A stretch of 59,992 bases of DNA, the filler included. It is 9 parts of 9 records of this genome, joined end to end, with 100 filler letters (N's around TTAATTAATTAA, not from the genome) between each part and the next. Parts side by side here need not be neighbours in the genome. Positions count along the whole stretch, not along the records: positions 47,044 to 54,147 come from SRR31147125_82956; 8 more parts are not named here. The stretch is one strand, 5' to 3'. Made by a program: the position numbers and the translations under genes. Positions 2,922 through 54,247 of this stretch are shown here, one piece after another. Numbering within the stretch: the first letter of the stretch is position 1; each line of letters opens with the position of its first letter. The notes under the pieces are model-generated. The model saw only the letters and a program-made list of their open reading frames with translations. It had not been told where the DNA came from and searched no databases.

Positions 2922-3035
2922 TTCAGATTTATCTTATCTCATTAACTATGGTTGTTCATATAAAAAATCACTTTGCAAAAATGTCTATGTAATTATTATT
3001 ACACAATTGACATTTAAAACAATCTTTAGCACAAA

Positions 3036-4555: not shown

Positions 4556-4560
4556 GACTT

Positions 4561-4956
4561 TTAATTTTTAGTTGTTGTATAATTCCCTGTTAGTATTAAG
4601 ACTATTAGAATACTGCATATTAAAAAATCGAATACGCTAATGGGTAGCATAAATGGCATAAGGATAAATGTTACACCTATGCTACTTAACGCCATTGGGA
4701 TTTTCCATGATGTACCGGTTAGAAGTCCCACAGCGGAAAAAATCCTTAGTAAGGTTATGCCTGAAAACAAAGGAATAAGATAGCCCGGGTGGGATGCAAA
4801 CAGTAGGTTCATGGGGATATAATACATCTCGGGATATTGATTTTCACATCTCCCGAGTGTCATCAGAATTGCCGTTACGCAATCGACAATTTCAATTAAC
4901 GAATACAATACAAAAATGTATCCTGCAATTGTAAGTAATATGTTTTTCTGTGTCAT
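4561..4956 (-). CDS. hypothetical membrane protein (about 4 TM)
   Basis: 131-aa hydrophobic ORF ending 5 bp upstream of the next gene. Confidence 0.7.
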   Translation of the reverse strand: MTQKNILLTIAGYIFVLYSLIEIVDCVTAILMTLGRCENQYPEMYYIPMNLLFASHPGYLIPLFSGITLLRIFSAVGLLTGTSWKIPMALSSIGVTFILMPFMLPISVFDFLICSILIVLILTGNYTTTKN

Positions 4957-5010
4957 TTTCGATTTGAATTATTTTCGAAAGCAAAAATGAACAATAGGTC
5001 AATACTGATC

Positions 5011-5099
5011 GTCTCAATAAAATCAGGGGAGGAATATTCAGCGTCTCAAGAAACTATTAACACCTAACAATCTGTATTTTACACTCATTTTATTGAGAC
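5011..5099. promoter_or_regulatory. 13-bp perfect inverted repeat GTCTCAATAAAAT/ATTTTATTGAGAC plus an extra CGTCTCAA copy; candidate operator
   Basis: Arms at 5011-5023 and 5087-5099, third motif at 5042-5049; lies between a membrane-anchored AraC gene and the downstream operon. Confidence 0.5.
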
Positions 5100-5104
5100 A
5101 GTTG

Positions 5105-6211: not shown

Positions 6212-6591
6212 ATTCTTACTACAGTAACTTTATAAGACAAAAAAAGCACATAATTACCAAAACTACAAAAGCGTTAAAAAGTAAGATATTTTTTCTTTTG
6301 CTTTAAAAATATTCTTCAGCAACTGCAAACAAATTGCCAATCGTGCGATATCAGGAAAAACAACTCTTTTGCAAGTTTTGGTCGCGGGGTGGCGCGTGCG
6401 ATATGCAAATGTGCTGTTTTGTGCAGTGGGGATTCTGTGACTTTGTGTGGGAGGAGAAAAAACAATTTAAATTCTCATCTAATTGCACCACCCCATCAAC
6501 GGAGCACAGATCCAGTCAATCCTTTTATTGTAATTATTTCAATTTTCTTATATCGTATCAATGTGTCGAGTTGGTGGTTCTAAACACTTGC

Positions 6592-6716
6592 TTACAACGA
6601 ATGGGTATAAAATGCGTGCCGCTTTTACCACATCCGTTCCTTGCACCAAGCTATTAAATTTTCATGTATTTTACAAAAAGCTCTGGCGGCATGAAATTTA
6701 TACCGTGTTGGCGGTA
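6592..6716 (-). mobile_element. attC-like recombination hairpin (integron-cassette type)
   Basis: Minus strand reads TACCGCCAAC-AC-GGTATAAATTTCATGCCGC...GCGGCACGCATTTTATACC-CATTC-GTTGTAA; inner arms 6604-6622 and 6686-6704 pair at 16/19; lies just downstream of the AraC stop. Confidence 0.7.
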
Positions 6717-6781
6717 TGTGGCTTTCTGTTGTCCGCTATCCGCTGTGTTTGGTCGTGTGTCTGCTTGTGTGGTTGGCTTTG

Positions 6782-7693
6782 TCAGTTAAATGATTGTCTA
6801 TACTTCAAAGGCGACATTTCGGTTTTCTTTTTGAAAAGTCGGTTGAATGATTGCGGTTGCTCAAAACCTAATTGATAGGCAATTTCATTTACGGATAAAT
6901 TTGTCGTTAAAAGTTTTTCTTTTGCTTTTTCAATCAGTTTTTCGTGAATGTGTAGTTGGGTATTTTGTCCTGTTAGCGAACGCAACATGTCGCTTAGATA
7001 ATTTGCGGAATAATTGAGCTTACTGGCTACATATTCAACTGTTGGCAATCCGTTTTTAAGTGATTCTGCGCTATCAAAATAATCTTTTAGCAAGTACTCC
7101 ATCCTGGAAAGCAAATCATTGTTTACAGCTTTTCGGGTAATGAATTGGCGTTCGTAAAAACGATTGCAATAATTCAATAGTAAATCAATTTGCGACAGGA
7201 TAATGTCTTGTGTGTGCTTGTCTATATGCTGATATTCCTTTTCTATTTTTTGAAAAATCTCAACAACATTTTGCTCTTCCTGCTCAGAAAGGTGCAACGC
7301 TTCATTTAAGGAATATGAAAAGAAGCCGTAATCTTTGATTGTGCTCTGAAGTTGGTGTTTTTGAAGAAAATCAGAATGAAAAATCAATACATACCCTGTC
7401 CCAATCGTTTCGTTAAAAACATTGGTTTCGGCTACTTCAACAGATTGAATTTGTTTGGGTGCAATAAACGTCATTGTCCCTTTGTCAAAATCATAATACT
7501 GTTGCCCGTATTTTACTTTGGATTGAATGTTGTTTTTTAACGATATGGTATAAAAATCGGTAGAAAAGCGTTGCCACAAGTCAGAATTTACAGCATGTAT
7601 TTCAGAAACCATCACCACACCTACCAACGGATGTAAGGGCGGTGAAATGGATAATAAGCGATGAAATTCGGATAAAGACTTAATTGTTCGCAT
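6782..7693 (-). CDS. AraC-family transcriptional regulator (Bacteroidota type)
   Basis: KYGQQYYDFDKG, YSLNEALHLS and SVNEIAYQLGFEQPQSFNRLFK motifs; likely start MRTIKS at 7693. Confidence 0.93.
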   Translation of the reverse strand: MRTIKSLSEFHRLLSISPPLHPLVGVVMVSEIHAVNSDLWQRFSTDFYTISLKNNIQSKVKYGQQYYDFDKGTMTFIAPKQIQSVEVAETNVFNETIGTGYVLIFHSDFLQKHQLQSTIKDYGFFSYSLNEALHLSEQEEQNVVEIFQKIEKEYQHIDKHTQDIILSQIDLLLNYCNRFYERQFITRKAVNNDLLSRMEYLLKDYFDSAESLKNGLPTVEYVASKLNYSANYLSDMLRSLTGQNTQLHIHEKLIEKAKEKLLTTNLSVNEIAYQLGFEQPQSFNRLFKKKTEMSPLKYRQSFN

Positions 7694-8039
7694 ATCTATA
7701 TAAAAATCCAAAGAAGATTAAAGCAACAATTTCTATAGTTAACCAAAGTAATTGTTTTGGAAAATAACCGTCTAAAACAAACCCGAATAAACGGGCTATA
7801 ACAATCCCCAAAGTTAGAAAAAACAATACAGCACACACCAATAGTTTCAAATTGTCCCATTGATTGTAAAAAGTGAGCAAAATGCCCAACCCAATTAAAA
7901 AACCCCATATGACCCGCATTTCAATCCTCTGATATGGATCTTCGGGCATAGGGATTTTGCTAACCAGGTTTGGTTTGTATGTGAGAATACATCCTACCGC
8001 AAGCAATACTGCTCCTATTATTTTCAATACCAAATTCAT
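7680..8039 (-). CDS. small membrane protein (DUF4345-like)
   Basis: 4 hydrophobic segments with ARLFGFVLDG; overlaps both neighbours. Confidence 0.65.
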   Translation of the reverse strand: MNLVLKIIGAVLLAVGCILTYKPNLVSKIPMPEDPYQRIEMRVIWGFLIGLGILLTFYNQWDNLKLLVCAVLFFLTLGIVIARLFGFVLDGYFPKQLLWLTIEIVALIFFGFLYRYANN

Positions 8040-8953
8040 TAACTCAGAGAAAGATTTTCCTGAAAGAATGGCACCAAATTATGCAACGCTTCTGCTGTTG
8101 CTTCGGGTTTGTCGTATAAATCATAATGTCCTGCGCCATTTACAATATGGATTTTCTTGTTTTTGGAAACGGCTTTTTTGTGCAAATCGAAACCATCTCT
8201 GTATGAACCAAAAGAACCAACTTTGTCCCCTACAATAATTAATAAAGGTTGTGCAAGCAAAACTTCGGCAAGATGAAAAGCATCAAACACTATTAAGTTT
8301 GCCATACTTGACAAAAGCAATTTATTGTTTGAAGTAGGATATTCGCCTCTTGGCGTTCTGTAATAATCGATAGCCTCCAACATATCCATGTCGCTTAATC
8401 CAGCTTGTTTTGCTTCTTCGGCTGACTTTGGTGTCCAATTGGTAATAATCTGTTCTGCTCCGTTGGCTTCTGCGGTTCGTTGAGAAGAAACAGCTTCTAA
8501 TGTTTCTAAAAAATTAGATTCTCTAAATGCTCTTCCTATGTTTACTCCCGAAACTGTAGCCACTGCTTTTATGCGTCTTTCTTTCAAAGCTGCATTTACA
8601 GCATAGCCACCACCTGCACAAATGCCTAATAAACCAATGCAGTTTTTATCTACAAAATTTAATGTACTAAGATAATCTACAGCATAGCGAATGTCTTCTA
8701 CTCGATGGGCAGGATCTTCCCAATATCTTGGTTCACCACCGCTTTCGCCTTGAAAAGAAGTGTCATAGGCCAAAGCAATGAGCCCTTTTTTAGCGAGGTT
8801 TTCTGCATATAAACCGGCAGTTTGTTCTTTTACGCTTCCTCCTGGGTGAACACAGACAATTGCCTGGTATTTTTTTGTTTCATCAAAATTATCGGGCAAA
8901 TGAAGATGGGCTGCTGTGTCCCAATTTCTGTTTTTGAATTTTACTTTTTGCAT
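8039..8953 (-). CDS. alpha/beta hydrolase (YcjY/dienelactone hydrolase-like)
   Basis: HPGGSVKEQTAGLYA, GICAGGGY nucleophile elbow (Cys), GAGHYDLYD. Confidence 0.9.
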   Translation of the reverse strand: MQKVKFKNRNWDTAAHLHLPDNFDETKKYQAIVCVHPGGSVKEQTAGLYAENLAKKGLIALAYDTSFQGESGGEPRYWEDPAHRVEDIRYAVDYLSTLNFVDKNCIGLLGICAGGGYAVNAALKERRIKAVATVSGVNIGRAFRESNFLETLEAVSSQRTAEANGAEQIITNWTPKSAEEAKQAGLSDMDMLEAIDYYRTPRGEYPTSNNKLLLSSMANLIVFDAFHLAEVLLAQPLLIIVGDKVGSFGSYRDGFDLHKKAVSKNKKIHIVNGAGHYDLYDKPEATAEALHNLVPFFQENLSLS

Positions 8954-9013
8954 TGTTTTATTCTTTTAAGTTTTACAATGCAAAATTCGTCTTCCTTTAA
9001 AAAGTAAATGTTT

Positions 9014-9041
9014 CCAAATCAAGGTTGTTTGTAACCAAATC
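9014..9041. promoter_or_regulatory. CCAAATC direct repeat, 21-bp period; candidate AraC binding site
   Basis: Copies at 9014-9020 and 9035-9041, upstream of the hydrolase-AraC operon. Confidence 0.45.
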
Positions 9042-9095
9042 GGGGTTGAAATGTCGGGTTATGTATCTCGTGTCGTTTGGTTGGGTATCCGCCAT

Positions 9096-9105
9096 TACCG
9101 CCAAC
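9096..9105 (-). mobile_element. Cassette 5' core site GTTGGCGGTA
   Basis: Forms an exact 10-bp inverted repeat with 6707-6716, the inverse core of the attC-like site. Confidence 0.65.
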
Positions 9106-9527
9106 TTCTAATACAGCGCTCCCAAACCCTCCAAAAGTTCGCGTTATTATTCCAAATTAAGAGCAATAGCAGTAACATTCAGTTACCACAACACATTTTT
9201 ATATCTCATCTTACTCCCCATTATCCTTCCTGGTTCTCCTGGCAGCTACCTGTGCCATAACCATGTCGGTTTTTTCAGGGTGTCAATCCAGTTAAAATCG
9301 GTCATATCTGCTGTGGTGAGGGCAACCATTGCTATATATAAATGTGTTCTCAGGAAAATTTGTTTCCAGTGTGGTTGAATAAAATTCTGTTGCTTCTACT
9401 AATTCCGAATGTGTGGCTTGTGATACACTTAAACCTCTTAAATTGTTCATAAACTAATGAGTTTTGGTTTAACAATGAAATAAATTTAGGAAAAAAATAT
9501 TTAATACCAACGGGTATCATTTAGCAT

Positions 9528-9627
9528 NNNNNNNNNNNNNNNNNNNNNNNNNNNNNNNNNNNNNNNNNNNNTTAATTAATTAANNNNNNNNNNNNNNNNN
9601 NNNNNNNNNNNNNNNNNNNNNNNNNNN
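9528..9627. other. artificial contig spacer
   Basis: N44-TTAATTAATTAA-N44 (stop codons in all six frames). Confidence 0.99.
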
Positions 9628-16642: not shown

Positions 16643-16742
16643 NNNNNNNNNNNNNNNNNNNNNNNNNNNNNNNNNNNNNNNNNNNNTTAATTAATTAANN
16701 NNNNNNNNNNNNNNNNNNNNNNNNNNNNNNNNNNNNNNNNNN
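16643..16742. other. artificial contig spacer
   Basis: N44-TTAATTAATTAA-N44. Confidence 0.99.
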
Positions 16743-23171: not shown

Positions 23172-23271
23172 NNNNNNNNNNNNNNNNNNNNNNNNNNNNN
23201 NNNNNNNNNNNNNNNTTAATTAATTAANNNNNNNNNNNNNNNNNNNNNNNNNNNNNNNNNNNNNNNNNNNN
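23172..23271. other. artificial contig spacer
   Basis: N44-TTAATTAATTAA-N44. Confidence 0.99.
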
Positions 23272-29291: not shown

Positions 29292-29391
29292 NNNNNNNNN
29301 NNNNNNNNNNNNNNNNNNNNNNNNNNNNNNNNNNNTTAATTAATTAANNNNNNNNNNNNNNNNNNNNNNNNNNNNNNNNNNNNNNNNNNNN
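29292..29391. other. artificial contig spacer
   Basis: N44-TTAATTAATTAA-N44. Confidence 0.99.
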
Positions 29392-34478: not shown

Positions 34479-34578
34479 NNNNNNNNNNNNNNNNNNNNNN
34501 NNNNNNNNNNNNNNNNNNNNNNTTAATTAATTAANNNNNNNNNNNNNNNNNNNNNNNNNNNNNNNNNNNNNNNNNNNN
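34479..34578. other. artificial contig spacer
   Basis: N44-TTAATTAATTAA-N44. Confidence 0.99.
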
Positions 34579-40153: not shown

Positions 40154-40253
40154 NNNNNNNNNNNNNNNNNNNNNNNNNNNNNNNNNNNNNNNNNNNNTTA
40201 ATTAATTAANNNNNNNNNNNNNNNNNNNNNNNNNNNNNNNNNNNNNNNNNNNN
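40154..40253. other. artificial contig spacer
   Basis: N44-TTAATTAATTAA-N44. Confidence 0.99.
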
Positions 40254-44768: not shown

Positions 44769-46019
44769 TCAATGTTTGAAGCTACGCTGCCCTGTATAGA
44801 CCATGGTCGCTCCATTTTCGTTACAGGCTTCGATCACCTCGAAATCATTCATGGACCCACCGGGCTGAATGATGGATTTCACCCCCTGCCGCAGTCCCAC
44901 ATCGATCCCGTCTCTGAACGGAAAGAAGGCATCGCTCACCATGGTGCTGCCAATGAGACCGCCCTTTTCTTTATCCACATCCGCCTTGATTTCAGCGATC
45001 TTGTCGGCATCTTCCAGAAGATTGAACGGGGTATTGTATCGCTCGAAGGAATAGCGATCCATCAGCTTTCGATAGGCCTTGTCCACTGCAATTTCAGCCA
45101 CACCGACGCGATCCTGCTCACCGGTTCCGATACCCACGGTGACGTTATCCTTCACATAGATGACTGAGTTGGATGTAATCCCCGACTCTACCAGCCACCC
45201 GAAAAGCATATCCTTGTACTCTTGCTCTGTGGGCTCTCGGTCAACTTTGTAGCTTTTACCTTTATATTCGGTTTCACCCAACTTGAGATCTTCTTTGATC
45301 AATGTCGTGGGAGCAAATGACCATTGCGCAACCAGGCCACCGTCCATCAAACTTTTGAAATCCACCACTCGCTCGCCGATGAAGGATTCGAGTTTATGGA
45401 TGTTGTTGATACGAATCACCCGCAGATTCTTTCTACGTCCCAGAATTTCCACAACGCCCTCATCGAACTCCGGAGCCACAACCACTTCGGCGTATTGATC
45501 GGCAATGGCTTCAGCCGTAGCCCGATCAACCGATCGGTTCAAGGCAATGCATCCGCCAAATGCAGCCACCCGATCCGCCATGTAGGCTTTGGTATAGGCG
45601 TCTTCCAGAGAATCGGCAATGGCAGCTCCGCAAGGGTTGTTGTGTTTGACGATCACGGCCCCCGGGGATGCGGAGAAATAGCGCAGGATATTGAGGGCAT
45701 TGTCTGCATCGGTGAGATTGGTTTTCCCGGGATGTTTCCCGGACTGAAGCAGCTCGATATCAGACACGATATATTTGCCGGGGGCGATGGTCTGGGTATC
45801 CCCCAAAACCAAATTACCGTTGATCAGTCGATAAAGGGCGGCTTCCTGACCGGGGTTTTCTCCGTATCGAAGCCCTTTTTGAACCCCATCAATGGTCCAG
45901 GCCACCTTTTCATAAAACAGGGTTTGACGCTTGTCCCCATCGACAAACGAAATTTCCATGGTAGGGGTAAAGTGATCATCCATGACGGTTTTGTACATCT
46001 GTTTTAAATCTTCAGCCAT
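44769..46019 (-). CDS. purH: Stand-alone AICAR transformylase domain (C-terminal half of PurH)
   Basis: LRYGENPGQ, VKHNNPCG, AFGG, SN, SDAFFPF, QPGGS, GQRSFKH. Confidence 0.9.
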   Translation of the reverse strand: MAEDLKQMYKTVMDDHFTPTMEISFVDGDKRQTLFYEKVAWTIDGVQKGLRYGENPGQEAALYRLINGNLVLGDTQTIAPGKYIVSDIELLQSGKHPGKTNLTDADNALNILRYFSASPGAVIVKHNNPCGAAIADSLEDAYTKAYMADRVAAFGGCIALNRSVDRATAEAIADQYAEVVVAPEFDEGVVEILGRRKNLRVIRINNIHKLESFIGERVVDFKSLMDGGLVAQWSFAPTTLIKEDLKLGETEYKGKSYKVDREPTEQEYKDMLFGWLVESGITSNSVIYVKDNVTVGIGTGEQDRVGVAEIAVDKAYRKLMDRYSFERYNTPFNLLEDADKIAEIKADVDKEKGGLIGSTMVSDAFFPFRDGIDVGLRQGVKSIIQPGGSMNDFEVIEACNENGATMVYTGQRSFKH

Positions 46020-46203: not shown

Positions 46204-46881
46204 TCAACAGGTATAACACCCTTTGACCTGATCGAATGCACGCTTTGCCAAATAGTCGGCAATGGTTCGATCGTATACGGCAGTGTGATCAAATGCCTTT
46301 GTTGCCAGCTCAAACCGTTTTTCAAGGCTCAACGCCCCATTTCCCTCTGCCATTGCGTTAAGAATGCCTTCATAATCCCCCGGATCCACAACCGAAGCCA
46401 CCCGAATGAAATTTTTGGCAGAGGCCCGGATCATGGTGGGACCGCCGATATCGATATTTCCCCTGGCATTTTCACAGGTGACGTCAGGCTTGGAAATGGT
46501 CTCTTTGAATGGATAGAGATTCACCACCACCATATCGATGGGAAGGGCTTGGGTTCTTTTCAAATCGTCCTGATGAGACGTGTTGTAGGTTTCCGTCAAT
46601 AGCCCCAAATAAATTTTAAAATCCAGGGTTTTGACAAGTCCGCCCTGGGTTTCGGGCTGACCGGTGTAATCCGATACCTGCTCCAGACATCCATCGGCCC
46701 GGCTGCCGAGAATCTCTTTGATTTTGGCAAACGTCCCGCCGGTGGAAAGAATCTTGATATCGGGGGTTAGATCCACAAGCCCTGGAATGAACGTCTCAAG
46801 GCCGGTCTTATCCGACACACTGACAAGGATGGTGTTGATTTTTACGGCATCATCAATTTTTTGGACAACATTTTTACTCAT
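46204..46881 (-). CDS. purH: Stand-alone IMP cyclohydrolase (MGS-like N-terminal half of PurH)
   Basis: SVSDKTGL, STGGT, GLVKTL, VVNLYPF, IDIGGPTMIRASAKN, HTAVYD. Confidence 0.92.
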   Translation of the reverse strand: MSKNVVQKIDDAVKINTILVSVSDKTGLETFIPGLVDLTPDIKILSTGGTFAKIKEILGSRADGCLEQVSDYTGQPETQGGLVKTLDFKIYLGLLTETYNTSHQDDLKRTQALPIDMVVVNLYPFKETISKPDVTCENARGNIDIGGPTMIRASAKNFIRVASVVDPGDYEGILNAMAEGNGALSLEKRFELATKAFDHTAVYDRTIADYLAKRAFDQVKGCYTC

Positions 46882-46943: not shown

Positions 46944-47043
46944 NNNNNNNNNNNNNNNNNNNNNNNNNNNNNNNNNNNNNNNNNNNNTTAATTAATTAAN
47001 NNNNNNNNNNNNNNNNNNNNNNNNNNNNNNNNNNNNNNNNNNN
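46944..47043. other. artificial contig spacer
   Basis: N44-TTAATTAATTAA-N44. Confidence 0.99.
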
Positions 47044-47348
47044 CCCAAATCTGACTTGAGCGGGAAACCTGTAGTTATTGATTTGAAAAAGGTAGATGAT
47101 TTACTTGCTGCTCAAAGTAAATTGAAGGGGTCATTAAATCCTTCAGCCGGAGAAAGCGGTATATATTACCGAATGCCTGGGAAAGCAGAAATTCGTATAA
47201 TGAATGGATTGGCACTAATGGTAACATCAAGGGCAACAATAGCTCAGTTTGGTTCGGTAGCACCTTTACCCGAAAGGATACTGATGGAAACTATCGGGTG
47301 CAATTTCATCCAAAAACAGGAGCAATTAAAAGTATTATAGATAAGTAA
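47044..47348 (+). CDS. DUF4831-like Bacteroidota protein, C-terminal fragment (5' partial, frameshift near 47278)
   Basis: GIYYRMPGKA, IAQFG; alternative frame ends FHPKTGAIKSIIDK*. Confidence 0.6.
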
Positions 47349-47353
47349 ACAGG

Positions 47354-47376
47354 AGCAGCCACAAGGCTGCTTTTTT
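47354..47376 (+). terminator. intrinsic terminator
   Basis: AGCAGCC-ACAA-GGCTGCT followed by TTTTT. Confidence 0.7.
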
Positions 47377-47459
47377 GTTGTGTGACATATTTATGCCCTC
47401 TTTTATTTTCTTACTTTTATCGGGCTGAAAACTTACAACTATTTGAAGATATTATTATT

Positions 47460-48845
47460 ATGAATGCAATTAAACAAACATTAAGAGATTCAAAATCTGC
47501 AAGATGGACTGCATTGGTTATTCTCTCATTTACCATGTTTGCTGGGTATATGTTTACCGAGGTAATATCTCCGATGAAGCCTATTCTAGAACGTACCTAC
47601 GGCTGGGATAGTACTGATTTTGGGGCTGTAACCAGTGCATATGGAATATTCAATGTATTCTTTTTCATGCTGATTATTGTTGGAATTTTACTTGATAAAT
47701 TTGGTATACGATTTTCAACAATTTCGTCAGTGGTGATTATGATTATTGGTGGCGGATTAAAATGGTATGCTTTTAAAGGAGGATTTTCTACAACCGAAGA
47801 GATTGACCTTTTTGGTCTTGTTCAATTAAAAGAACAGGTGTTTTTCGCAGCACTCGGATTTGCCATATTTGGAGTGGGGGTTGAATATGCTGGAATTACG
47901 GTGTCTAAAGCCGTAGTGAAATGGTTTAAAGGGAAGGAACTTGCCTTAGCTATGGGAATGCAGGTTGCAATAGCCCGATTAGGATCATTTGCGCCTCTCG
48001 CTTTTGGGGCTTTGGTAGCTACTACTTTTAACGTTCCTTTTACCATTTTGTTAGTCGTTTTGTTTCTGATTGCAGGACTCATTGCATTCTTTTATTATAA
48101 CTTGATGGATGCAAAGCTGGATAAGCAAATTGGAGCTAATGAAACCGAATCATCAAACGAAGATGAGTTTAAAATATCAGACATAAGTGTTATTATCTCC
48201 AATAAAGGGTTTTGGCTTATTGCTATCCTTTGTGTATTGTTTTACTCTGCTGTTTTCCCATTTTACAAATACGGTCCAGATTTAATGGTAAATAAGTTTG
48301 GTGTATCCGAAAGATGGGCCGGTTTATTACCGAGCCTTGTGCCTTTTGGAACCATGCTGCTTACTCCATTTTTTGGAAGCCTTTATGATCGGAAAGGGAA
48401 AGGTGCAAGCATTATGATTTTAGGAGCTATACTTTTAATTGTTGTTCACACCATATTCTATCTTCCATTTGTTACAAGCGTTGTGGCAGCCTTTTTCAAT
48501 GTAATTCTTTTGGGTATTGCATTCTCTTTGGTTCCATCAGCCATGTGGCCATCAGTTCCAAAAATTATTCCTGAAAAACAGTTAGGAAGTGCTTATGCGT
48601 TAATATTCTGGATTCAGAATATTGGACTTTGGGGAATACCTTTATTAGTTGGTATTGTGCTTGATAGAACAAATCCGGGTGTTGCTGCAGCTAAAAAAGC
48701 AGGTGAGAATGTAACGTATGATTATTCTGTTACCTGGATCATTTTTGTATCACTTACATTGGTTGCACTTATTACTGCATTTTTGTTAAAACTTGAGGAT
48801 AAGAAAAAGGGTTATGGTCTTGAAAGCCCAAATATTGAAAAATAG
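47460..48845 (+). CDS. MFS transporter
   Basis: About 12 TM; GILLDKFGIR (motif A); likely start MNAIKQ. Confidence 0.93.
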   Translation: MNAIKQTLRDSKSARWTALVILSFTMFAGYMFTEVISPMKPILERTYGWDSTDFGAVTSAYGIFNVFFFMLIIVGILLDKFGIRFSTISSVVIMIIGGGLKWYAFKGGFSTTEEIDLFGLVQLKEQVFFAALGFAIFGVGVEYAGITVSKAVVKWFKGKELALAMGMQVAIARLGSFAPLAFGALVATTFNVPFTILLVVLFLIAGLIAFFYYNLMDAKLDKQIGANETESSNEDEFKISDISVIISNKGFWLIAILCVLFYSAVFPFYKYGPDLMVNKFGVSERWAGLLPSLVPFGTMLLTPFFGSLYDRKGKGASIMILGAILLIVVHTIFYLPFVTSVVAAFFNVILLGIAFSLVPSAMWPSVPKIIPEKQLGSAYALIFWIQNIGLWGIPLLVGIVLDRTNPGVAAAKKAGENVTYDYSVTWIIFVSLTLVALITAFLLKLEDKKKGYGLESPNIEK

Positions 48846-48871
48846 GATTTATTGAAATATAAATACATATT

Positions 48872-48898
48872 AGCCCTGCTTATTGCGGGGCTTTTTTT
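48872..48898 (+). terminator. intrinsic terminator
   Basis: AGCCCTGC-TTATT-GCGGGGCT followed by a T-run. Confidence 0.7.
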
Positions 48899-48992
48899 AG
48901 ATGTCTGACAAATCTCAGAACAAGTTGGCAGCTTTAATTGTATTTTTAAAAATGTTTCATTCAATAAGAATAATCAAATTAAAAACGATAAA

Positions 48993-50456
48993 ATGAGTAA
49001 CGAAATTAAAAACCTTGAACCCAAAGTTCTTTGGGAAAACTTTTATAGCTTGACACAAATCCCACGTCCTTCAAATCATGAAGAGCAAATCCAGGATTTT
49101 ATATTTGAATTTGGAACAAACCTTGGCTTGGAAACCATTAAAGACGAGATTGGCAATATCATCATTAAAAAACCAGCAACTCCAGGATTTGAGAAATGTC
49201 AGGGTGTAATTATGCAGGGGCATTTAGATATGGTTCCACAGAAGAATAGCGACAAAGTGCATGATTTTGAAAATGACCCAATTGAAACTTTAATTGATGG
49301 TGAATGGGTAACAGCAAATGGCACAACACTTGGAGCCGACAATGGAATTGGAGTGGCAGCAACTATGGCTGTTTTGGCTTCAAAAGATATTGAGCATGGA
49401 CCTTTCGAGGCGTTGTTTACTGCAACAGAAGAAACTGGGATGGATGGAGCCGAAGGATTAAAAGCTGGTGTTGTTGATGGAGATATCCTAATAAATACGG
49501 ATACGGAAGATGAAGGTACATTTAGCGTTGGTTGTGCTGGAGGAATAGATGTGGTTGCTACTTTTAAAGCAAAACGTAAGAAGCTGAAAGCTAAAAATAA
49601 CAAAGCCTTTAAGCTTAGTATCACTGGGTTGAAAGGTGGTCATTCTGGTGTGGATATTCATTTGGGAAGAGGAAATGCAAATAAAATATTCTTCCGAATT
49701 CTTATTGAATTGAATCGTAGAATCAAAGTTTCACTGGGTGATATTCAAGGAGGAAGTTTGAGGAATGCTATTCCACGTGAGGCTTTTGGTGTGGTAGTTG
49801 TTAAAGATGCGAGCATCGATAAACTAAATGAAAAACTAGGGCAGATTGTTAGTGTTATTAAAACGGAGCTTATAAATGTTGAGCCTGATCTTTCGATTGA
49901 ACTTGTAGAAACGGAAATGCCAGAAGGCGTTTTTGAAAGAGATTTTCAACAAAAACTGGCTAGTGCTGTATGGGCTGCACCAAATGATGTGGTTCGTATG
50001 AGTGATACCATGGTGAATACTGTTGAAACGTCAAGTAATTTAGCTATTGTTAAAGCTGGCGAGAAATCGGTCGAGATCAGCTGTCTGGTACGTAGTTTTT
50101 CAGAAACAGCTAAACTGGCTCTCGCTTCAAGATTACAATCGGTTTTTAAATTGGCTGAAGCTAAAGTTTTATTTGAAGGAAGCTATCCAGGATGGAAGCC
50201 AAATATGGATTCAGCTATTCTGGAAGTAATGAAAAACCTATATGCAAAGCAATTTGGGAAAGAACCGGAATTATTGGCCATGCATGCTGGTTTGGAATGT
50301 GGTATACTTGGAGCTACTTACCCGAATTGGGATATGATATCAATCGGTCCAACGATTAGTTTCCCACATTCACCGGATGAGAAAGTTAACATTGAAACGG
50401 TTAAGAAATTCTGGGATTTCCTTTTGGAGACCTTAAAGAACATTCCGAAGAAATAA
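48993..50456 (+). CDS. pepD: Aminoacyl-histidine dipeptidase (M20C)
   Basis: QGHLDMV, TTLGADNGIG, EETGMDGA, GGHSG, HAGLECG, HSPDE. Confidence 0.96.
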   Translation: MSNEIKNLEPKVLWENFYSLTQIPRPSNHEEQIQDFIFEFGTNLGLETIKDEIGNIIIKKPATPGFEKCQGVIMQGHLDMVPQKNSDKVHDFENDPIETLIDGEWVTANGTTLGADNGIGVAATMAVLASKDIEHGPFEALFTATEETGMDGAEGLKAGVVDGDILINTDTEDEGTFSVGCAGGIDVVATFKAKRKKLKAKNNKAFKLSITGLKGGHSGVDIHLGRGNANKIFFRILIELNRRIKVSLGDIQGGSLRNAIPREAFGVVVVKDASIDKLNEKLGQIVSVIKTELINVEPDLSIELVETEMPEGVFERDFQQKLASAVWAAPNDVVRMSDTMVNTVETSSNLAIVKAGEKSVEISCLVRSFSETAKLALASRLQSVFKLAEAKVLFEGSYPGWKPNMDSAILEVMKNLYAKQFGKEPELLAMHAGLECGILGATYPNWDMISIGPTISFPHSPDEKVNIETVKKFWDFLLETLKNIPKK

Positions 50457-50471
50457 GATGAAGATATAAAT

Positions 50472-50500
50472 GAAACCCTTACTTAACGTGAGGGTTTCTT
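50472..50500 (+). terminator. probable intrinsic terminator
   Basis: GAAACCCTTAC-TTAAC-GTGAGGGTTTC followed by TT. Confidence 0.6.
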
Positions 50501-50702
50501 TGCTTTTATATTCTTTGCATTTCCCCGCCTCAACCTGAAGAAGCTTAAGTAGATATCTTTCAAAATAGAATAGAAAGTCGAATGTAGGTTGAAGTTACTA
50601 GCCATTAAAATTGTAAATACTTGTTAATGTTGCCATATAACTGTCTTTTGCATTTTCCTTTTGGACATATTTTAATTTATTTAGCTTTTCGAATAATAAG
50701 CT

Positions 50703-51473
50703 ATGAGCAAAAAATCATGCATTTTATTTTGTAAATGTGGAGCAGGTGTAATTTCTCAAGGGAAAATAGACCAATTGTTAAATGCGATACAGCAGCTGGA
50801 TTCAGATATTTTTGAATTGCAGGATTTGTGCGCTATTTCTGTAAATGAAAAACATGTTCTAACAAATATTGCAGATAAATACCAGCAAAAAATAATTATT
50901 GCCTGCTATCCACGAGCTGTAAAAAATATGCTTCTACAGGCAGGTGTTAGTTTGGATGGATTTGAAGTATTGAGCTTTAAAGAGCTTTCATCTGATGAAA
51001 TTAGTTCAGCTTTAAAAACAAATTTTCAGTTTGAAGAAGGTGAGTCAAATTATCAGGTGGAAACTACTGAACTGAAAGTTCCGGCATGGTTTCCTGTGAT
51101 TGATGAATCGCGTTGTTCGCTTTGTGGAAAATGTGCCCGGTTCTGCCTTTTTGGTGTTTATGCATATAACAAGAAGAGCTTGACTGTTATAAATCCGCTG
51201 TCGTGCAAAAACAATTGTCCCGCCTGTGGTCGAACCTGTCCGGAATCTGCAATTATGTTTCCTCGTTTGGTTGAAGACTCAGTGCTTGCAGGCGCAAACC
51301 CAGATGAAAAGACAGATAAACCGATAGAGAATAAGGATAGTTTGTTTGTTTTATTGAATGAGCGCAATCGGGCAAGAAAGAGTATTTTTAAGCAAGGAGT
51401 AGTCCAAATAGCTGAAGAAGAACGGAAAAAGGCGTTAGAAGAATTTAAAGCAAGTATTAAAAAAGAGAAATGA
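50703..51473 (+). CDS. Fe-S protein: HdrA-N-like Cys domain plus 2x[4Fe-4S] ferredoxin
   Basis: FCKCG...DLC...IIACYPR; CSLCGKCARFC and CKNNCPACGRTCP. Confidence 0.85.
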   Translation: MSKKSCILFCKCGAGVISQGKIDQLLNAIQQLDSDIFELQDLCAISVNEKHVLTNIADKYQQKIIIACYPRAVKNMLLQAGVSLDGFEVLSFKELSSDEISSALKTNFQFEEGESNYQVETTELKVPAWFPVIDESRCSLCGKCARFCLFGVYAYNKKSLTVINPLSCKNNCPACGRTCPESAIMFPRLVEDSVLAGANPDEKTDKPIENKDSLFVLLNERNRARKSIFKQGVVQIAEEERKKALEEFKASIKKEK

Positions 51474-51474
51474 C

Positions 51475-52650
51475 ATGCTAAAGCAATTGCTATTTAATAC
51501 TGATAAACGGTGCCTTTATAAGTTTGGATATAACATGGGGGTTAAAGGTGCGCTTGGCTTTAACCGCTTTCAGAAACGATTAAAAAAGGGAGAGTTCTTC
51601 CCCGCATTTCATTTTATTTCGGTAACCGATGATTGTAACCTGAATTGCCAGGGGTGCTGGGTTATGGGTAAAAAGAAAAACAATAGGTTGTCGGCTGAAC
51701 AGTTGGATCAGATAATTACCGAAACAAAAGCTCAGGGATCTTATTTCTTTGGTATTTTGGGAGGAGAGCCCTTGTTGTATAAACCCTTGTTTGATATTTT
51801 CAAAAAACATAATGACTGCTATTTTCAGTTATTTACCAACGGGACTTTGCTAACTCCTGAAATTGCAGAACGTATAAGGCAATGTGCTAATGTATCGCCT
51901 TTAATCAGTTTTGAAGGAGATGAAGAAGTGGCTGACGTAAGACGTGGAGGGCAGAATGTGTATCAACTTACTCAGCAGGCTATTGATTCTGCTACACAGG
52001 CAGGCTTGGTAACAGGTGTTGCGATGAGTGTTTGCAAGTCGAATCTTGAGTTGGCTTTGTCTGAGTCATTTATTCAGTCGTTGGTTGATCGTGGTGTCCT
52101 TTATTTATGGTATTACATTTACCGGCCAGTAGGTGAGAACGCTACTACTGAACTAAGTTTAAGTGCAGAAGAAATTAAAAAACTAAGAGAGCATATTGTT
52201 GAAGCTCGTTCAAAATATAGCATTGCTATAATTGATGCATATTGGGATGCAGAAGGTAAAGGACTTTGTCCCGCAGCATCTGGTTTAAGCCATCATATTA
52301 ATGCTTCGGGCTATATAGAGCCTTGTCCGGTTATCCAGTTTGCGACCGATCGTGTTGGTGATAAATCGTTAGCTGATATTTATCGAACATCAACATTTTT
52401 GAATGATCTAAAAATTGAAATTCCAGCAAAAACAAGTGGATGTATTGTTATGGATGATCCTCAGTGGCTGGTTGATTTTGTTGAGAAACATGGAGCCATG
52501 GACACATCCGGACGAGAAACTGAAGCAGCTCGGCTGCGAGCCATGCAGAAAGTTTGTAGTCATGGTTCAGGTGATCCCATTCCTGAGAAAAGATGGGTAT
52601 ATAAATTTGCAAAAAAACGCGCCTTTTTTGGATTTGGTGCATACGGATAG
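51475..52650 (+). CDS. Radical SAM protein with twitch/SPASM-like C-terminal region
   Basis: CNLNCQGC, LGGEP, FTNGT; CPAASGLSHHINASGYIEPCP. Confidence 0.92.
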   Translation: MLKQLLFNTDKRCLYKFGYNMGVKGALGFNRFQKRLKKGEFFPAFHFISVTDDCNLNCQGCWVMGKKKNNRLSAEQLDQIITETKAQGSYFFGILGGEPLLYKPLFDIFKKHNDCYFQLFTNGTLLTPEIAERIRQCANVSPLISFEGDEEVADVRRGGQNVYQLTQQAIDSATQAGLVTGVAMSVCKSNLELALSESFIQSLVDRGVLYLWYYIYRPVGENATTELSLSAEEIKKLREHIVEARSKYSIAIIDAYWDAEGKGLCPAASGLSHHINASGYIEPCPVIQFATDRVGDKSLADIYRTSTFLNDLKIEIPAKTSGCIVMDDPQWLVDFVEKHGAMDTSGRETEAARLRAMQKVCSHGSGDPIPEKRWVYKFAKKRAFFGFGAYG

Positions 52651-52653
52651 GCT

Positions 52654-54147
52654 ATGATTAAAACAGAAAGTTTGTTGAAAGTGCCTGATAATGTGAAGTT
52701 TCGAAATTTATTGCGAAGGGAAGCTCATGCGTTGGTTGTTGAAAAGAATCTGCAGCCTCCTGCTGATATTGAGCTTTTGGAAGAACTCGCTCTGGAACTT
52801 TTAACAAAACTGGGCTTAGATAAGGAATACCTCGATTTTACCATCGTTTTGTGTGGAAATGAGTTGTGGCGTGATATTATTGCAGCAACCCCTTTTCAAC
52901 GTCGATTATTGTTGTTGCCTCAATGTTTAAAAAATACACAATCTTGCAAGGCAGATATGGATTCGTTGGGGCTGATTTGTGCAGGTTGTAAAGGTTGCCA
53001 GATCGATAGTGTCCTTACGAAAGCGGAAGCTTTGGGTTATACCACTTTGGTTGCTGAGGGAACTACTGTTGCTGTGGGTTTAGTTGCTGAAGGTGCAATT
53101 GATGCCGTAATTGGAGTTAGTTGTATGCCTGTGCTGCAACGTTCTTTTGAGCCTGTATCCAGGGCTGCTGTGCCAGTAATGGGCTTACCTCTTTTATACA
53201 ATGGTTGTGAGAATACAAATGTTGATTATGGTTGGTTATTTGAAGAAATGCATCAACTGAAACCAAATGCTGAGATACAGCCTTTATCTGTTTCCTTGTT
53301 GAAAAATCAGGTTCAGGATTATTTCACCGAGTTTTACTTGAATCGTTATTTTCAGTCTCATGACGATACGGAAAAACTTGCAAAGCAAATGTTGGTAATG
53401 GGGGGGCAGCGTGTTCGTCCATTATTGGCAGTGTTGGCGTATCGATCGTATTGTCAGGAAATTGATGAAAATATTCAGACATCACTAGCCATTATTATTG
53501 AATGTTTTCATAAGGCTTCGCTTATTCACGATGATATTGAAGATGGTGATGATTATCGATATGAGCAAGAGACTATGCATAAAACCCATGGGATTCCAAT
53601 TGCCCTTAACGTAGGGGATTATCTTATTGGGAAAGGCTATCATATTTTATCGAATTTGCCTGTAGATGCTCCTGTTTTGGCTTCATCACTTAAAGTGGTT
53701 TCATCTTCTCATTTAAATCTTTCCGCAGGTCAGGGTGCAGATTTAATGCTGACTGATAAGTTGCATGATATTTCAGTTGACCAGCTATTGCAAATATTTG
53801 TTCAAAAGACAGGTGAAGCTATAAAAGTGGCCTTGTTGCTTGGTGCTATTAATGGAGGAGCCGATGAATCTGAATTGAAAATATTGCAAACTTTTGCAGA
53901 TTGGTTTGGCATCGCATATCAGATTCGTGATGATTTAAGTGAGTTTAGACAAGATCAGCCAGAGCACCTTCATCAATTCCCATTCTTGATAGCGTTACTA
54001 AATGAAAAGTATTCTAAGTCAGATGTAAAGAATGGATTCCATGCAATGAAAGACTTAAGTTTACAACAATTACATCAGCTTATTTTGAAAGAACAAATTG
54101 ATGTACATGCAGATGCATTCCTTGATTTGTACATTGATAAATGTTAT
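52654..54147 (+). CDS. DUF116-like Cys-rich domain fused to trans-polyprenyl diphosphate synthase (3' partial)
   Basis: LLLPQCL...C...ICAGCKGC...GVSC...NGC; then GGQRVRP, FARM HDDIEDGD, GQGADL, KTG, SARM QIRDDLSE. Confidence 0.88.
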
Positions 54148-54247
54148 NNNNNNNNNNNNNNNNNNNNNNNNNNNNNNNNNNNNNNNNNNNNTTAATTAAT
54201 TAANNNNNNNNNNNNNNNNNNNNNNNNNNNNNNNNNNNNNNNNNNNN
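54148..54247. other. artificial contig spacer
   Basis: N44-TTAATTAATTAA-N44. Confidence 0.99.

Follow-up and report, generated by a model that had tools for sequence, protein, structure and literature searches.

The locus at 50703–54147 carries three co-oriented genes, which encode a polyferredoxin, a radical SAM enzyme and a fusion of a DUF116 domain with a polyprenyl-diphosphate synthase. It lies in the window, i.e. the whole stretch of DNA that was analysed (59,992 nucleotides, nine contigs with N spacers between them). Judged by gene order in relatives, this trio is the first three genes of a five-gene operon, which continues with a small alpha/alpha-toroid protein and then a class II terpene cyclase resembling squalene-hopene cyclase (SHC-like). 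The operon is conserved from Bacteroidota to Planctomycetota. It probably builds a ring-bearing isoprenoid lipid without squalene synthase or O2. We consider it highly likely that the genes constitute one pathway towards a cyclised isoprenoid, with a radical reaction among its steps; calling this pathway anaerobic would follow from its Fe-S and radical SAM content.

The three genes are tightly packed. The junction of genes 1 and 2 (TGA-c-ATG) leaves a gap of 1 bp and that of genes 2 and 3 (TAG-gct-ATG) a gap of 3 bp, such that ORF calls and junction reads bear out the arrangement given in a preliminary description of this DNA. This description had also let the locus start after a pepD terminator, in agreement with which a hairpin with T tail was found after the M20 peptidase gene, bounding the intergenic region upstream of gene 1 on its 5' side (Table 1). 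The cysteine clusters that it had noted in all three genes could be located and are largely invariant across the aligned relatives. The reading of gene 3 stops at the spacer because the contig ends there, and the window carries only three of the five operon genes.

Table 1. Positions of the features at the three-gene locus, counted along the window
Feature	Position	Strand	Evidence or remark
M20 peptidase gene	48993–50456		upstream of the hairpin
Terminator-like hairpin with T tail	50472–50498	+	11 pairs, 5 G-C, tail TTTGCTTTTA; 3' of the M20 peptidase gene
Intergenic region	50499–50702		
Gene 1, 256-aa polyferredoxin-like protein	50703–51473	+	ORF, Cys motifs, alignment of relatives
Gene 1, 2x[4Fe-4S] core, C138–C179	51114–51239		
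Gene 2, 391-aa radical SAM enzyme	51475–52650	+	Pfam, NCBIfam, alignment, PDB profile matches
Gene 2, CxxxCxxC motif	51634–51657		
Gene 3, DUF116::trans-polyprenyl diphosphate synthase fusion	52654–54147	+	498 of ~522 aa readable, 3' end missing
DUF116 domain, gene 3 residues 48–198	52795–53247	+	Pfam PF01976, 108.5 bits against a cut-off of 25
Polyprenyl synthase domain, gene 3 residues 240–435	53371–53958	+	polyprenyl_synt (PF00348), 133.6 bits against a cut-off of 27
Assembly spacer	54148–54247	.	N run, TTAATTAATTAA, N run; beyond it a different contig, not the operon continuation

The product of gene 1 combines an N-terminal domain with four cysteines (C11, C13, C43 and C68), a 2x[4Fe-4S] core and a basic C-terminal helix. 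The core contains two four-cysteine ferredoxin motifs, C138-x2-C141-x2-C144-x3-C148 and C168-x3-C172-x2-C175-x3-C179, and none of these eight cysteines varies among the 27 relatives aligned. The protein stays narrowly below the Pfam ferredoxin cut-offs (Fer4_6, 21.7 against 25; Fer4, 19.3 against 21.1). In the PDB its sequence weakly matches ferredoxin domains, namely those of oxalate oxidoreductase delta, HdrA and RnfB.

Gene 2 encodes a radical SAM enzyme, with a score of 61.6 bits for the Pfam family Radical_SAM (PF04055, cut-off 29.5). The CxxxCxxC motif (C54-x3-C58-x2-C61) is invariant in all 27 aligned relatives, and the glycine-rich SAM motif GGEP (G96-G97-E98-P99) is likewise invariant. 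Four further cysteines, two of them within CP motifs, are the same in 27 of 27 sequences (C187, C265-P266, C284-P285 and C323) and suggest a twitch-like auxiliary cluster. A Pfam SPASM match is absent for the protein of the window; some sources call its relatives 'radical SAM/SPASM'. At the C-terminus an FGxGAYG tail is conserved, and the conserved basic and aromatic residues of this tail would fit an enzyme acting at the membrane surface. The nearest curated or solved relatives are SkfB, NirJ2, ScmF, mycofactocin maturase, SuiB and CteB, with SkfB being both the best NCBIfam match (74 bits against a cut-off of 300) and the nearest solved structure (PDB 6efn, E=9e-20). No curated NCBIfam family cut-off was reached, and the enzyme does not fall into a characterised family. 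Assignments as the adenosylhopane synthase HpnH (TIGR03470, 40.4 bits against 225) and as Tes/GDGT-MAS (7tol, match confined to profile positions 49–179, E=1.5e-6) were rejected.

Gene 3 joins two domains in one chain, for which full-length relatives measure 516–523 aa. The DUF116 part contains seven cysteines that are invariant in 30 of 30 and in 37 of 37 sequences. An AF2 model (pLDDT 83.4) predicts a charged helical bundle at the N-terminus of the protein, with the N-terminal part of the DUF116 domain being helical and followed by a flavodoxin-like alpha/beta part. This domain has no sequence match in the PDB, and a Foldseek comparison of the model with the PDB returned no match at E<=0.001; the best weak matches, corrinoid and B12-binding proteins at TM 0.23–0.28, may be taken as a sign only that a helical cap is combined with a Rossmann/flavodoxin-like layout.

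The trans-prenyltransferase part had been described as intact-looking. This stands as far as the PF00348 score and the first Asp-rich motif, DDIED, are concerned, with H-D-D-x-E-D being invariant in 30 of 30 fusion sequences. It does not stand for the whole gene, which is cut at the contig end; the second Asp-rich motif reads DDLSE and not DDxxD. In Mangrovibacterium this second motif is DDLNE and the family consensus is DDLxD; only its second Asp (D427) is invariant (30 of 30), the first being conserved in less than 90% of the sequences. Positions -5/-4 of the first motif are occupied by A and S, without an insertion. Among solved structures FPP and GGPP synthases are closest, and scores against hexa-, hepta- and octaprenyl synthases (136–140 bits) are close to those against FPP synthases. 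No NCBIfam equivalog cut-off was reached, so no chain-length class is assigned; the best matches were the encapsulin cargo polyprenyl transferase (126 against 450), IdsA (115 against 468) and FPP synthase (112 against 275).

In relatives the operon was found in its complete form, with identical gene order among the loci listed. Of 24 Prolixibacteraceae loci, 23 had the full set of five genes; among the 35 metagenome loci with at least 2.5 kb of upstream and at least 3 kb of downstream sequence, 27 did. Among 151 genomes of the family, 68 contained both the fusion and the radical SAM gene, 2 the fusion only, 1 the radical SAM gene only and 80 neither, giving 70 carriers; in a sample of the phylum the sole carrier among 201 genomes was the query genome. 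Conserved synteny and co-occurrence, which the preliminary description had proposed as checks, thus both hold, and the grouping of the trio goes beyond chance because many genomes keep both the order and the joint presence of these genes. Only five families recur in the neighbourhood when ORFs of 90 aa and above are clustered; beyond these, no family is widely shared around the module, and neither an HpnG-like gene nor another downstream gene is conserved there. The same set recurs in relatives whose fusion is as low as 35–40% identical to that of the query. The link to squalene-cyclase-repeat genes that had been suggested earlier is found again in the toroid and cyclase genes that follow the trio. 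All predictions of the preliminary description that lend themselves to computation were borne out.

Two kinds of variation were seen within this pattern. Gene 2 is the most conserved of the five proteins (53–90% identity, against 38–81% for the fusion), and in one subclade (tree calculated with FastTree) its slot is filled by a larger, unrelated radical SAM enzyme while the other four genes remain. Of 44 metagenome loci that extend far enough upstream, 40 had a radical SAM gene of one type or the other. Furthermore, four loci (L099, L106, L130 and L138) contain ferredoxin, radical SAM enzyme and fusion, with no cyclase after the toroid gene. At the place of the cyclase L138 and L099 contain large ORFs without Pfam match or mutual likeness, and that of L138 has no likeness to the cyclase profile either.

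The cyclase encoded by the fifth gene is about 600 aa long, scores above the Pfam cut-offs for the N and C domains of SQHop_cyclase (PF13243 and PF13249) and retains the motif VPDxDDT in 64 of 64 full-length copies. An assignment as squalene-hopene cyclase (TIGR01507) was rejected at 93.3 and 116.2 bits against 431. It probably belongs to the published 'SHC-like' clade, as judged from taxon range, length and scores and not from a joint tree. In five of five carrier genomes checked it was the sole PF13243 match, and in none of these five did HpnH exceed its cut-off. A squalene/phytoene synthase (PF00494) match was found in 44 of the 70 carriers and not found in 26, in agreement with the earlier expectation of carriers without squalene synthase, an absence from draft genomes not being proof. 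Presence of PF00494 was not associated with carriage of the module (odds ratio 1.5, p=0.25). G001, the only carrier examined for the context of this gene, has its single PF00494 copy within a carotenoid cluster (crtI-crtB-lycopene cyclase). The canonical hopanoid pathway was rejected, the cyclase being far below the SHC cut-off and the five carriers checked having neither another cyclase nor an HpnH match above its cut-off. A menaquinone or futalosine role was also rejected; no such genes are conserved nearby and the link to the cyclase speaks against it.

From these sequences we infer all chemical steps of the following mechanism, as well as their order and the chain length. The synthase domain would form an all-trans prenyl diphosphate from DMAPP and IPP. 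The dedicated polyferredoxin would reduce the radical SAM enzyme, and the Fe-S DUF116 domain would keep the redox chemistry located at the synthase. By radical or reductive chemistry the radical SAM enzyme would then convert the prenyl diphosphate into the cyclase substrate, most likely by joining two chains to a C30–C40 polyene. Finally the DxDD cyclase, perhaps acting jointly with the toroid protein, would protonate a terminal double bond and cyclise the polyene. That the radical step builds the cyclase substrate in this way is quite conceivable and is put forward tentatively as the favoured version. Such a version is consistent with the fusion of the Fe-S domain to the synthase and not to the cyclase, with the four loci that keep the trio without adjacent cyclase, and with FPP and GGPP synthases as closest solved relatives of the synthase. 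Two published observations also count in its favour: a triterpenoid-type gamma domain in the SHC-like clade (PMC12414744; cited, like the other sources here, for its accessible parts) and the existence of SHC-bearing anaerobes that lack Trans-IPPS-HH enzymes (PMC7306690). A further point is a Bipolaricaulota cluster for which DUF116, IspH, SHC, HpnH and polyprenyl synthetase are listed, with no squalene synthase listed in the accessible part of the preprint (bioRxiv 10.1101/2025.11.21.689855).

The A and S at -5/-4 without insertion fit a synthase that makes a long regular chain alone, and in that case coupling would be unnecessary. Counting further against coupling, we know of no radical SAM/Fe-S enzyme that joins prenyl diphosphates head to head. 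Steps of radical SAM enzymes on isoprenoid lipids in a 2026 review are either tailoring or tail-to-tail coupling (HpnH, HpnJ, HpnP/R, Grs, Tes; PMC13459092), the hopanoid ones all being tailoring. The SHC-like clade moreover has as its sister group the epoxy-polyprenyl cyclases, which use regular, all-head-to-tail polyprenyl chains (PMC12414744). It is also conceivable, if somewhat less likely, that the synthase alone provides a regular C25–C35 polyprenyl diphosphate on which the SHC-like cyclase acts directly to form a tricyclopolyprenol-type lipid. The radical SAM enzyme would then tailor the chain or the cyclised product, e.g. by HpnH-like 5'-deoxyadenosyl addition at the terminal double bond, methylation or ring formation, with ferredoxin and DUF116 being an electron relay only. 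The A and S residues, the sister group and the tailoring steps on hopanoids agree with this, as do the similar scores for long-chain and FPP synthases and a weak HpnH-like match of gene 2 over residues 32–245; that two unrelated radical SAM classes can occupy the slot is also more readily imagined if the step is a simple addition or abstraction. However, the HpnH score remains far below its cut-off (40 bits against 225), the neighbourhood lacks a conserved HpnG-like or other downstream gene, and the radical SAM enzyme, the most conserved of the five proteins, is grouped upstream with the synthase instead of the cyclase. It would also stay unexplained why the synthase is fused to an Fe-S domain.

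The relatedness of gene 2 to peptide and cofactor maturases (SkfB and its structure 6efn being nearest) would fit an enzyme that is fed by the ferredoxin and modifies another protein or builds a cofactor, as SPASM/twitch maturases do, and never acts on a lipid. We regard this as improbable: none of these maturase family cut-offs is reached, no short precursor-peptide gene is conserved among the recurring families (from ORFs of 90 aa upwards), the C-terminal tail would rather suit the membrane surface, and an unrelated radical SAM class substitutes while the other four genes stay. Patchy distribution, with 70 of 151 family genomes and only the query genome in the phylum sample, is what one would see for a dispensable secondary metabolite, i.e. 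a terpenoid or meroterpenoid natural product instead of a membrane lipid, and the preprint mentioned above classes a cluster of DUF116, SHC and polyprenyl synthetase as a terpenoid natural-product cluster (bioRxiv 10.1101/2025.11.21.689855). Against this, the same five genes recur without tailoring or export genes down to the lowest fusion identities and the proteins are strongly conserved. This pattern resembles that of a core lipid trait more closely than that of a variable biosynthetic cluster, and a secondary metabolite appears quite unlikely. That the three genes are adjacent by chance and have no joint function can hardly be credited; conserved order and co-occurrence contradict it and no supporting point was found.

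Known systems share parts of the module. As in the hopanoid pathway (HpnCDE or Sqs, SHC/HpnF, HpnH), genes for the supply of an isoprenoid precursor are clustered with those for a radical SAM enzyme and for a DxDD-bearing class II cyclase from the SHC superfamily, and the product is presumably a polycyclic membrane lipid. In contrast to that pathway, the five genes include no squalene synthase gene, the cyclase (93–116 bits against 431) and the radical SAM enzyme (40 against 225) fall below the respective cut-offs, and a dedicated polyferredoxin, a synthase-fused DUF116 Fe-S domain and a single-toroid protein are added. The SHC-like clade occurs in PVC, FCB and Acidobacteriota (PMC7306690; PMC12414744), which matches the taxon range of the module (Bacteroidota, Planctomycetota, Acidobacteria), as do the length of about 600 aa and the retained catalytic motif. 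For its cyclase the genomic context in Planctomycetes suggests a non-squalene precursor (Santana-Molina et al. 2020, PMC7306690); ferredoxin, radical SAM enzyme and DUF116 fusion, however, are not named in the accessible parts of the published accounts (PMC7306690, PMC12414744).

In Bacillus the sporulenol pathway (heptaprenyl-PP synthase, YtpB, SqhC) supplies a non-squalene substrate, derived from a dedicated polyprenyl diphosphate, to a class II cyclase from the SHC superfamily (PMC7306690), a pairing that the module appears to share. Unlike this pathway, the module has radical SAM and Fe-S proteins instead of a YtpB-like gene, and the host phyla differ. Tes/GDGT-MAS and Mss are radical SAM enzymes with auxiliary Fe-S clusters that act on lipid chains and offer an O2-free precedent for joining two isoprenoid chains (PMC13459092). 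Their substrates, however, are saturated, glycerol-bound chains, and gene 2 matches only the core radical SAM region of Tes/GDGT-MAS and differs in size and cysteine pattern. Stand-alone archaeal DUF116 proteins (arCOG02078) are predicted to function in electron transfer, and a fusion with polyprenyl synthetase was noted in Pirellula staleyi (Makarova et al. 2015, PMC5898192). The domain of gene 3 belongs to the same Pfam family of Cys-rich flavodoxin-like domains. In the archaeal proteins two transmembrane helices are located at the N-terminus, and sulfite/nitrite reductase or ArsA-like genes lie nearby, whereas gene 3 has the charged helical bundle and a terpene cyclase operon as context. 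A literature search outside subscription journals and supplements found no description of the five-gene module.

Two papers single out substrate and product of the SHC-like clade as an unsolved problem in the interpretation of the lipid biomarker record (PMC7306690; PMC12414744). The module provides a handle on this orphan terpene cyclase family, and since the cyclase is tied to a compact cassette in cultured strains, the problem becomes directly testable. It also gives DUF116 its first functional context and points to radical SAM isoprenoid chemistry that is absent from the accessible parts of the 2026 review of lipid-modifying radical SAM enzymes (PMC13459092). If the trio makes a polyene, this would represent new enzymology and an O2-independent source of polycyclic lipids, with a bearing on pre-oxygenation biomarkers. 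In its furthest-reaching form, which we consider unlikely, the trio would be a third, Fe-S/radical route to a squalene-like C30–C40 polyene that requires neither squalene/phytoene-synthase-type enzymes nor NAD(P)H nor O2. From this polyene the SHC-like cyclase would make a new class of polycyclic lipids in anaerobic and facultative PVC, FCB and Acidobacteriota. Such a route would account for the substrate supply in some SHC-bearing anaerobes without Trans-IPPS-HH enzymes and could be a biological source of orphan sedimentary terpanes, e.g. tricyclic terpanes.

The fusion constitutes a large two-domain family with 343 representatives at E<=1e-30, whose source names include Planctomycetota, Phycisphaerae, Acidobacteria and Thermoanaerobaculia. 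Source names place relatives also in Acidobacteriota, with Verrucomicrobiota being a lead for the radical SAM enzyme only. Cultured carriers are Mangrovibacterium lignilyticum BM_7, Sunxiuqinia elliptica CGMCC 1.9156 and S. dokdonensis DH1. Among the members of the clusters of ten diverse fusion representatives one was named, as Bacteroidales.

The three genes under study close a contig of 7104 bp (47044-54147, G+C 0.377) and encode a polyferredoxin (gene 1), a radical SAM enzyme (gene 2) and a DUF116 domain joined to a polyprenyl-diphosphate synthase (gene 3, the fusion). The intergenic gaps within this trio are 1 base between genes 1 and 2 and 3 bases between genes 2 and 3. The fusion is cut by the contig end, intact relatives having 516-523 codons. 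The genes upstream of the trio are an MFS transporter and an M20 peptidase gene in the window (47382-50456) versus, e.g., DUF3857/DUF3858 proteins in L009, the locus of a relative; the relatives' stretches compared were L009:1-7636 and L003:1-7780.

Coordinates of features in the window and in loci of relatives (L-numbers)
Feature	Position	Remark
Spacers between contigs	9528-9627, 16643-16742, 23172-23271, 29292-29391, 34479-34578, 40154-40253, 46944-47043, 54148-54247	N/TTAATTAATTAA/N
Partial ORF		trio's contig, before MFS transporter gene
MFS transporter gene	47382-48845	
M20 peptidase gene	48993-50456	
Hairpin and T tail	50472-50498	closes M20 peptidase gene
Gene 1, ferredoxin	50703-51473	256 aa
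Gene 2, radical SAM	51475-52650	391 aa
Gene 3, DUF116::synthase fusion	from 52654 to contig end 54147	498 codons readable
Second radical SAM type (ALT), whole copies	L096:4817-6511, L108:8412-9950, L115:8096-9661, L122:8359-9960, L114:990-2540, L099:8305-9933	
Loci with extra ferredoxin ORF	L103:6327-7448 and 7445-7786; L141:4627-6054	

Nine loci in named genomes, all from Prolixibacteraceae (including Sunxiuqinia and Mangrovibacterium), encode near relatives of the fusion with 67-74% identity. Carriers available in culture are M. lignilyticum BM_7, S. elliptica and S. dokdonensis. In the nine loci the trio is followed by a gene for a protein of ~280 aa (the toroid gene, see below) and then by a gene for a cyclase of ~600 aa. 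All five genes were found in the same order in 23 of 24 Prolixibacteraceae genome loci, comprising 4 of the named-genome fusion loci and 20 further ones. The sole exception (L060 in G339:C14, 226-11670) contains ferredoxin and fusion only, the radical SAM, toroid and cyclase genes being absent within ~9 kb. In this locus the fusion is followed by a CobW-type GTPase gene and four PQQ-like beta-propeller genes, and the genome gave no radical SAM match at E<=1e-80. Searching metagenomes with an alignment of 30 diverse fusion sequences returned 566 relatives, the best 80 of which were kept. Among these best 80, 35 loci had flanks of no less than 2.5 kb upstream and 3 kb downstream, and 27 of the 35 contained the complete set. 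Counted singly in the same 80, a radical SAM gene of either type (see below) occurred in 40 of 44 loci with sufficient upstream sequence and the ferredoxin gene in 41 of 44; the corresponding figures were 60 of 64 for the toroid gene and 38 of 48 for the cyclase. When the flanking ORFs were all clustered, no widely shared family emerged beyond these five. The next-ranked families were lineage-specific: purA, relA/spoT, fur, beta-propellers, the CobW GTPase (9 loci) and a NifS-like gene (5 loci). Downstream of the operon, Prolixibacteraceae repeatedly have a D-serine-dehydratase-like gene as well as purA, fur and relA/spoT.

Among 151 sampled genomes of the family, 70 carried the fusion (E<=1e-60) and 69 the radical SAM enzyme (E<=1e-80); 68 genomes had both and 80 had neither, 2 had only the fusion and 1 only the radical SAM enzyme. 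The corresponding Fisher test (p ~2e-39) has descriptive value only, because the sampled genomes are related. One in-frame TAA breaks the radical SAM match in two family genomes (G258:C16:46135-47121 and G299:C167:559-1732), which may reflect a broken copy or an assembly error. In a phylum sample of 201 genomes the two-domain fusion was found in the query genome only, the other 62 matches covering the synthase part alone. The fusion family is large all the same: clustering at 50% yields 343 representatives with E<=1e-30, and of the best 150 almost every one matches over both domains. Source names in a distant branch include Planctomycetes, Phycisphaerae, Acidobacteria and Thermoanaerobaculia. 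Clusters resembling the radical SAM enzyme were commonest in Bacteroidota, Planctomycetota and Verrucomicrobiota, which serves as a lead only.

Within the fusion, Pfam assigns residues 48-198 to DUF116 (108.5 bits) and residues 240-435 to a trans-polyprenyl diphosphate synthase (133.6 bits). An AlphaFold model of the DUF116 part (pLDDT 83.4) consists of three N-terminal helices and an alpha/beta domain. It matched no PDB fold at E<=0.001, and the DUF116 part matched no PDB sequence. Model and negative searches agree with the one paper found to treat this family, which predicts DUF116 to be a flavodoxin-like, metal-binding electron-transfer domain and mentions its fusion to a polyprenyl synthetase in Pirellula staleyi (PMC5898192). 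In the synthase part the first Asp-rich motif is DDIED, with A and S at positions -5/-4 and without an insertion, and the second is DDLSE. Among solved structures it is closest to FPP and GGPP synthases, medium-chain synthases following not far behind, and it reached no NCBIfam equivalog cut-off. Seven cysteines are invariant in the DUF116 part. IspH and IspG hold a cluster with three Cys ligands; one may speculate that the seven cysteines would likewise suit one such cluster besides a fully ligated one.

The ~600-aa protein contains the N and C domains of squalene-hopene cyclases (SHC). All 64 full-length copies carry the class II general-acid motif in the form VPDxDDT. Against the SHC model, whose cut-off is 431 bits, the protein scored only 93-116 bits. 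For the ~280-aa protein of Mangrovibacterium there was no Pfam match; a distant member of its family matches the prenyltransferase alpha/alpha toroid family. The AlphaFold model of the ~280-aa protein (pLDDT 93.6) is a single toroid resembling geranylgeranyltransferase beta subunits, single-domain class II cyclases (8pak, 8paj) and drimenyl diphosphate synthase. Invariant residues are D210, D258 and E260, while DxDD and conserved Cys or His are absent.

Gene 1 has a 2x[4Fe-4S] ferredoxin core, and 27 of 27 relatives retain all eight of its cysteines. Four more cysteines, which most but not all relatives keep, lie in the N-terminal domain of gene 1, and its C-terminus forms a basic helix. Pfam ferredoxin models scored slightly below their cut-offs, and the top NCBIfam and PDB matches were the ferredoxin domains of HdrA, oxalate oxidoreductase delta and RnfB. 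In part of the non-Bacteroidota branch (L103, L141 and similarly L094, L098, L106, L107, L133, L138) a separate ORF of 110-135 aa, also matching the ferredoxin model, precedes the ferredoxin gene, whose N-terminal domain there lacks the Cys present in other branches. Upstream in this sub-branch lie genes for a NifS-like class-V aminotransferase (5 loci) and a CobW/HypB-type GTPase (9 loci), which may help in metal-cluster assembly.

Gene 2 exceeded the Pfam radical SAM cut-off (61.6 versus 29.5 bits) and contains CxxxCxxC at residues 54-61 as well as GGEP. Four further cysteines (187, 265, 284 and 323) are invariant, two of them each within a CP motif, and the tail FGxGAYG is conserved. Among NCBIfam profiles no curated family cut-off was reached (SkfB 74 bits versus 300, NirJ2 67 versus 500, HpnH of the hopanoid pathway 40 versus 225). 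The closest solved structures were SkfB (E=9e-20), BlsE, SuiB and CteB; likeness to GDGT-MAS was confined to the core (E=1.5e-6). The best 120 homologues show 70-85% identity, are nearly all 390-397 aa long and bear generic names only. In 10 metagenome loci an unlike radical SAM enzyme (ALT) lies between ferredoxin and fusion. Six whole ALT copies measure 512-564 aa, the ORF of L139 has 747 aa, and contig ends truncate the other three. The radical SAM domain of ALT begins at about residue 226 after a conserved B12-binding-like N-terminal domain, and only one Cys outside CxxxCxxC is invariant. ALT weakly resembles the TIGR04013 B12-binding-domain/radical SAM family (71-79 bits versus 251) and MiaB-type enzymes. 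In a FastTree tree of the fusions 8 of 12 ALT-labelled rows fell into one 10-row clade (SH-like support 99), a clustering equalled in 0 of 500 label shuffles. Since ALT fills the slot of gene 2 while the other four module genes are retained, the module keeps a radical SAM step despite the swap of enzymes.

Synteny, co-occurrence and the self-contained gene set together make it quite probable that the five proteins act towards one cyclised isoprenoid, with one radical SAM step fed by a dedicated low-potential ferredoxin. This ferredoxin would pass its electrons to the radical SAM enzyme. Regarding the role of the trio we tentatively favour that it builds the substrate of the cyclase, in the simplest case by joining two prenyl chains to a C30-C40 polyene. 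This reading is suggested by the Fe-S domain, which is fused to the synthase and not to the cyclase, and by the arrangement of the trio as an upstream unit that certain loci hold without an adjoining cyclase. It is also suggested by the contrast between the synthase, which looks most like short-chain enzymes, and the triterpenoid-type gamma domain of the cyclase clade.

A further argument comes from the many carriers, i.e. genomes with the fusion, that lack a squalene synthase. The squalene/phytoene synthase family PF00494, which also takes in HpnC and HpnD, was matched in 3 of 5 carrier genomes. In Mangrovibacterium lignilyticum the only copy has two phytoene-desaturase-like genes on one side and lycopene cyclase on the other and is therefore crtB. 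This carotenoid cluster (L013, G001:C8:1402000-1418000, at 2855-9491) additionally holds a fatty-acid-desaturase-like gene and Caroten_synth. In the family sample PF00494 was present in 44 of the 70 carriers, compared with 43 of the 81 genomes lacking the fusion (odds ratio 1.5, p=0.25); it was absent from 26 of 70 carriers, where the draft state of the genomes can hide a gene. The module cyclase was the sole match to the SHC-type cyclase domain PF13243 in all 5 carriers, and none of the 5 had HpnH above cut-off. The main rival, in which the synthase makes a long regular chain that the cyclase uses directly and the radical SAM enzyme tailors, is only slightly less probable than the substrate-building role. 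It draws on the small residues that precede the first Asp-rich motif, the regular substrates of the cyclase's sister clade and the precedents of tailoring radical SAM enzymes in the accessible part of a review (PMC13459092). A maturase role for the radical SAM enzyme or a secondary-metabolite role for the module is less likely than these two readings.

Single parts of the module are already known, namely the fusion (2015) and the cyclase clade (2020, 2025). In their available text, Santana-Molina et al. 2020 define divergent 'SHC-like' cyclases that retain the catalytic residues in Planctomycetes, where the genomic context suggests a non-squalene precursor (with reference to Supplementary Fig. 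S10); they also mention SHC-bearing members of the anammox bacteria and Desulfuromonadales that lack Trans-IPPS-HH enzymes (PMC7306690). The function of the SHC-like clade is stated as not demonstrated in the accessible portion of a later paper (PMC12414744). By taxon range, length and scores the present cyclase would fit this clade. The accessible part of the 2026 review names as lipid-modifying radical SAM enzymes Tes, Mss, Gms, GrsA/B, Gmm, Cds, HpnH/J/P/R, Jaw5 and the ladderane enzymes, and nothing similar to the five-gene module is among these (PMC13459092). A Bipolaricaulota preprint, in the text available, places DUF116, IspH, SHC, HpnH and polyprenyl synthetase side by side (bioRxiv 10.1101/2025.11.21.689855). 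In the main texts of the freely accessible papers searched, we saw neither the five-gene module described nor its radical SAM enzyme and ferredoxin, nor any product. We regard the module as a kind of terpenoid lipid cluster that pairs a class II cyclase with a radical SAM enzyme, and there is a real chance that it holds new enzymology. Tricyclic terpanes are described as orphan biomarkers of unknown source in the accessible part of one study (PMC9247107), and the available text of a preprint counts cheilanthanes with the biomarkers whose pathway is not fully characterised (bioRxiv 10.64898/2026.01.29.702649). The module might possibly be linked to these compounds.

The window as a whole is composed of nine contigs of 5.1-9.5 kb with separators of the form N...TTAATTAATTAA...N, and genes from separate contigs are not to be taken as neighbours. 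Because the contig G+C spreads from 0.35 to 0.59, with two contigs at 0.57 and 0.59, the bin may mix several organisms. On the contig preceding that of the trio (G+C 0.485) two adjoining minus-strand ORFs (44769-46019 and 46204-46881) resemble by eye the separately encoded halves of a purH-type bifunctional enzyme.
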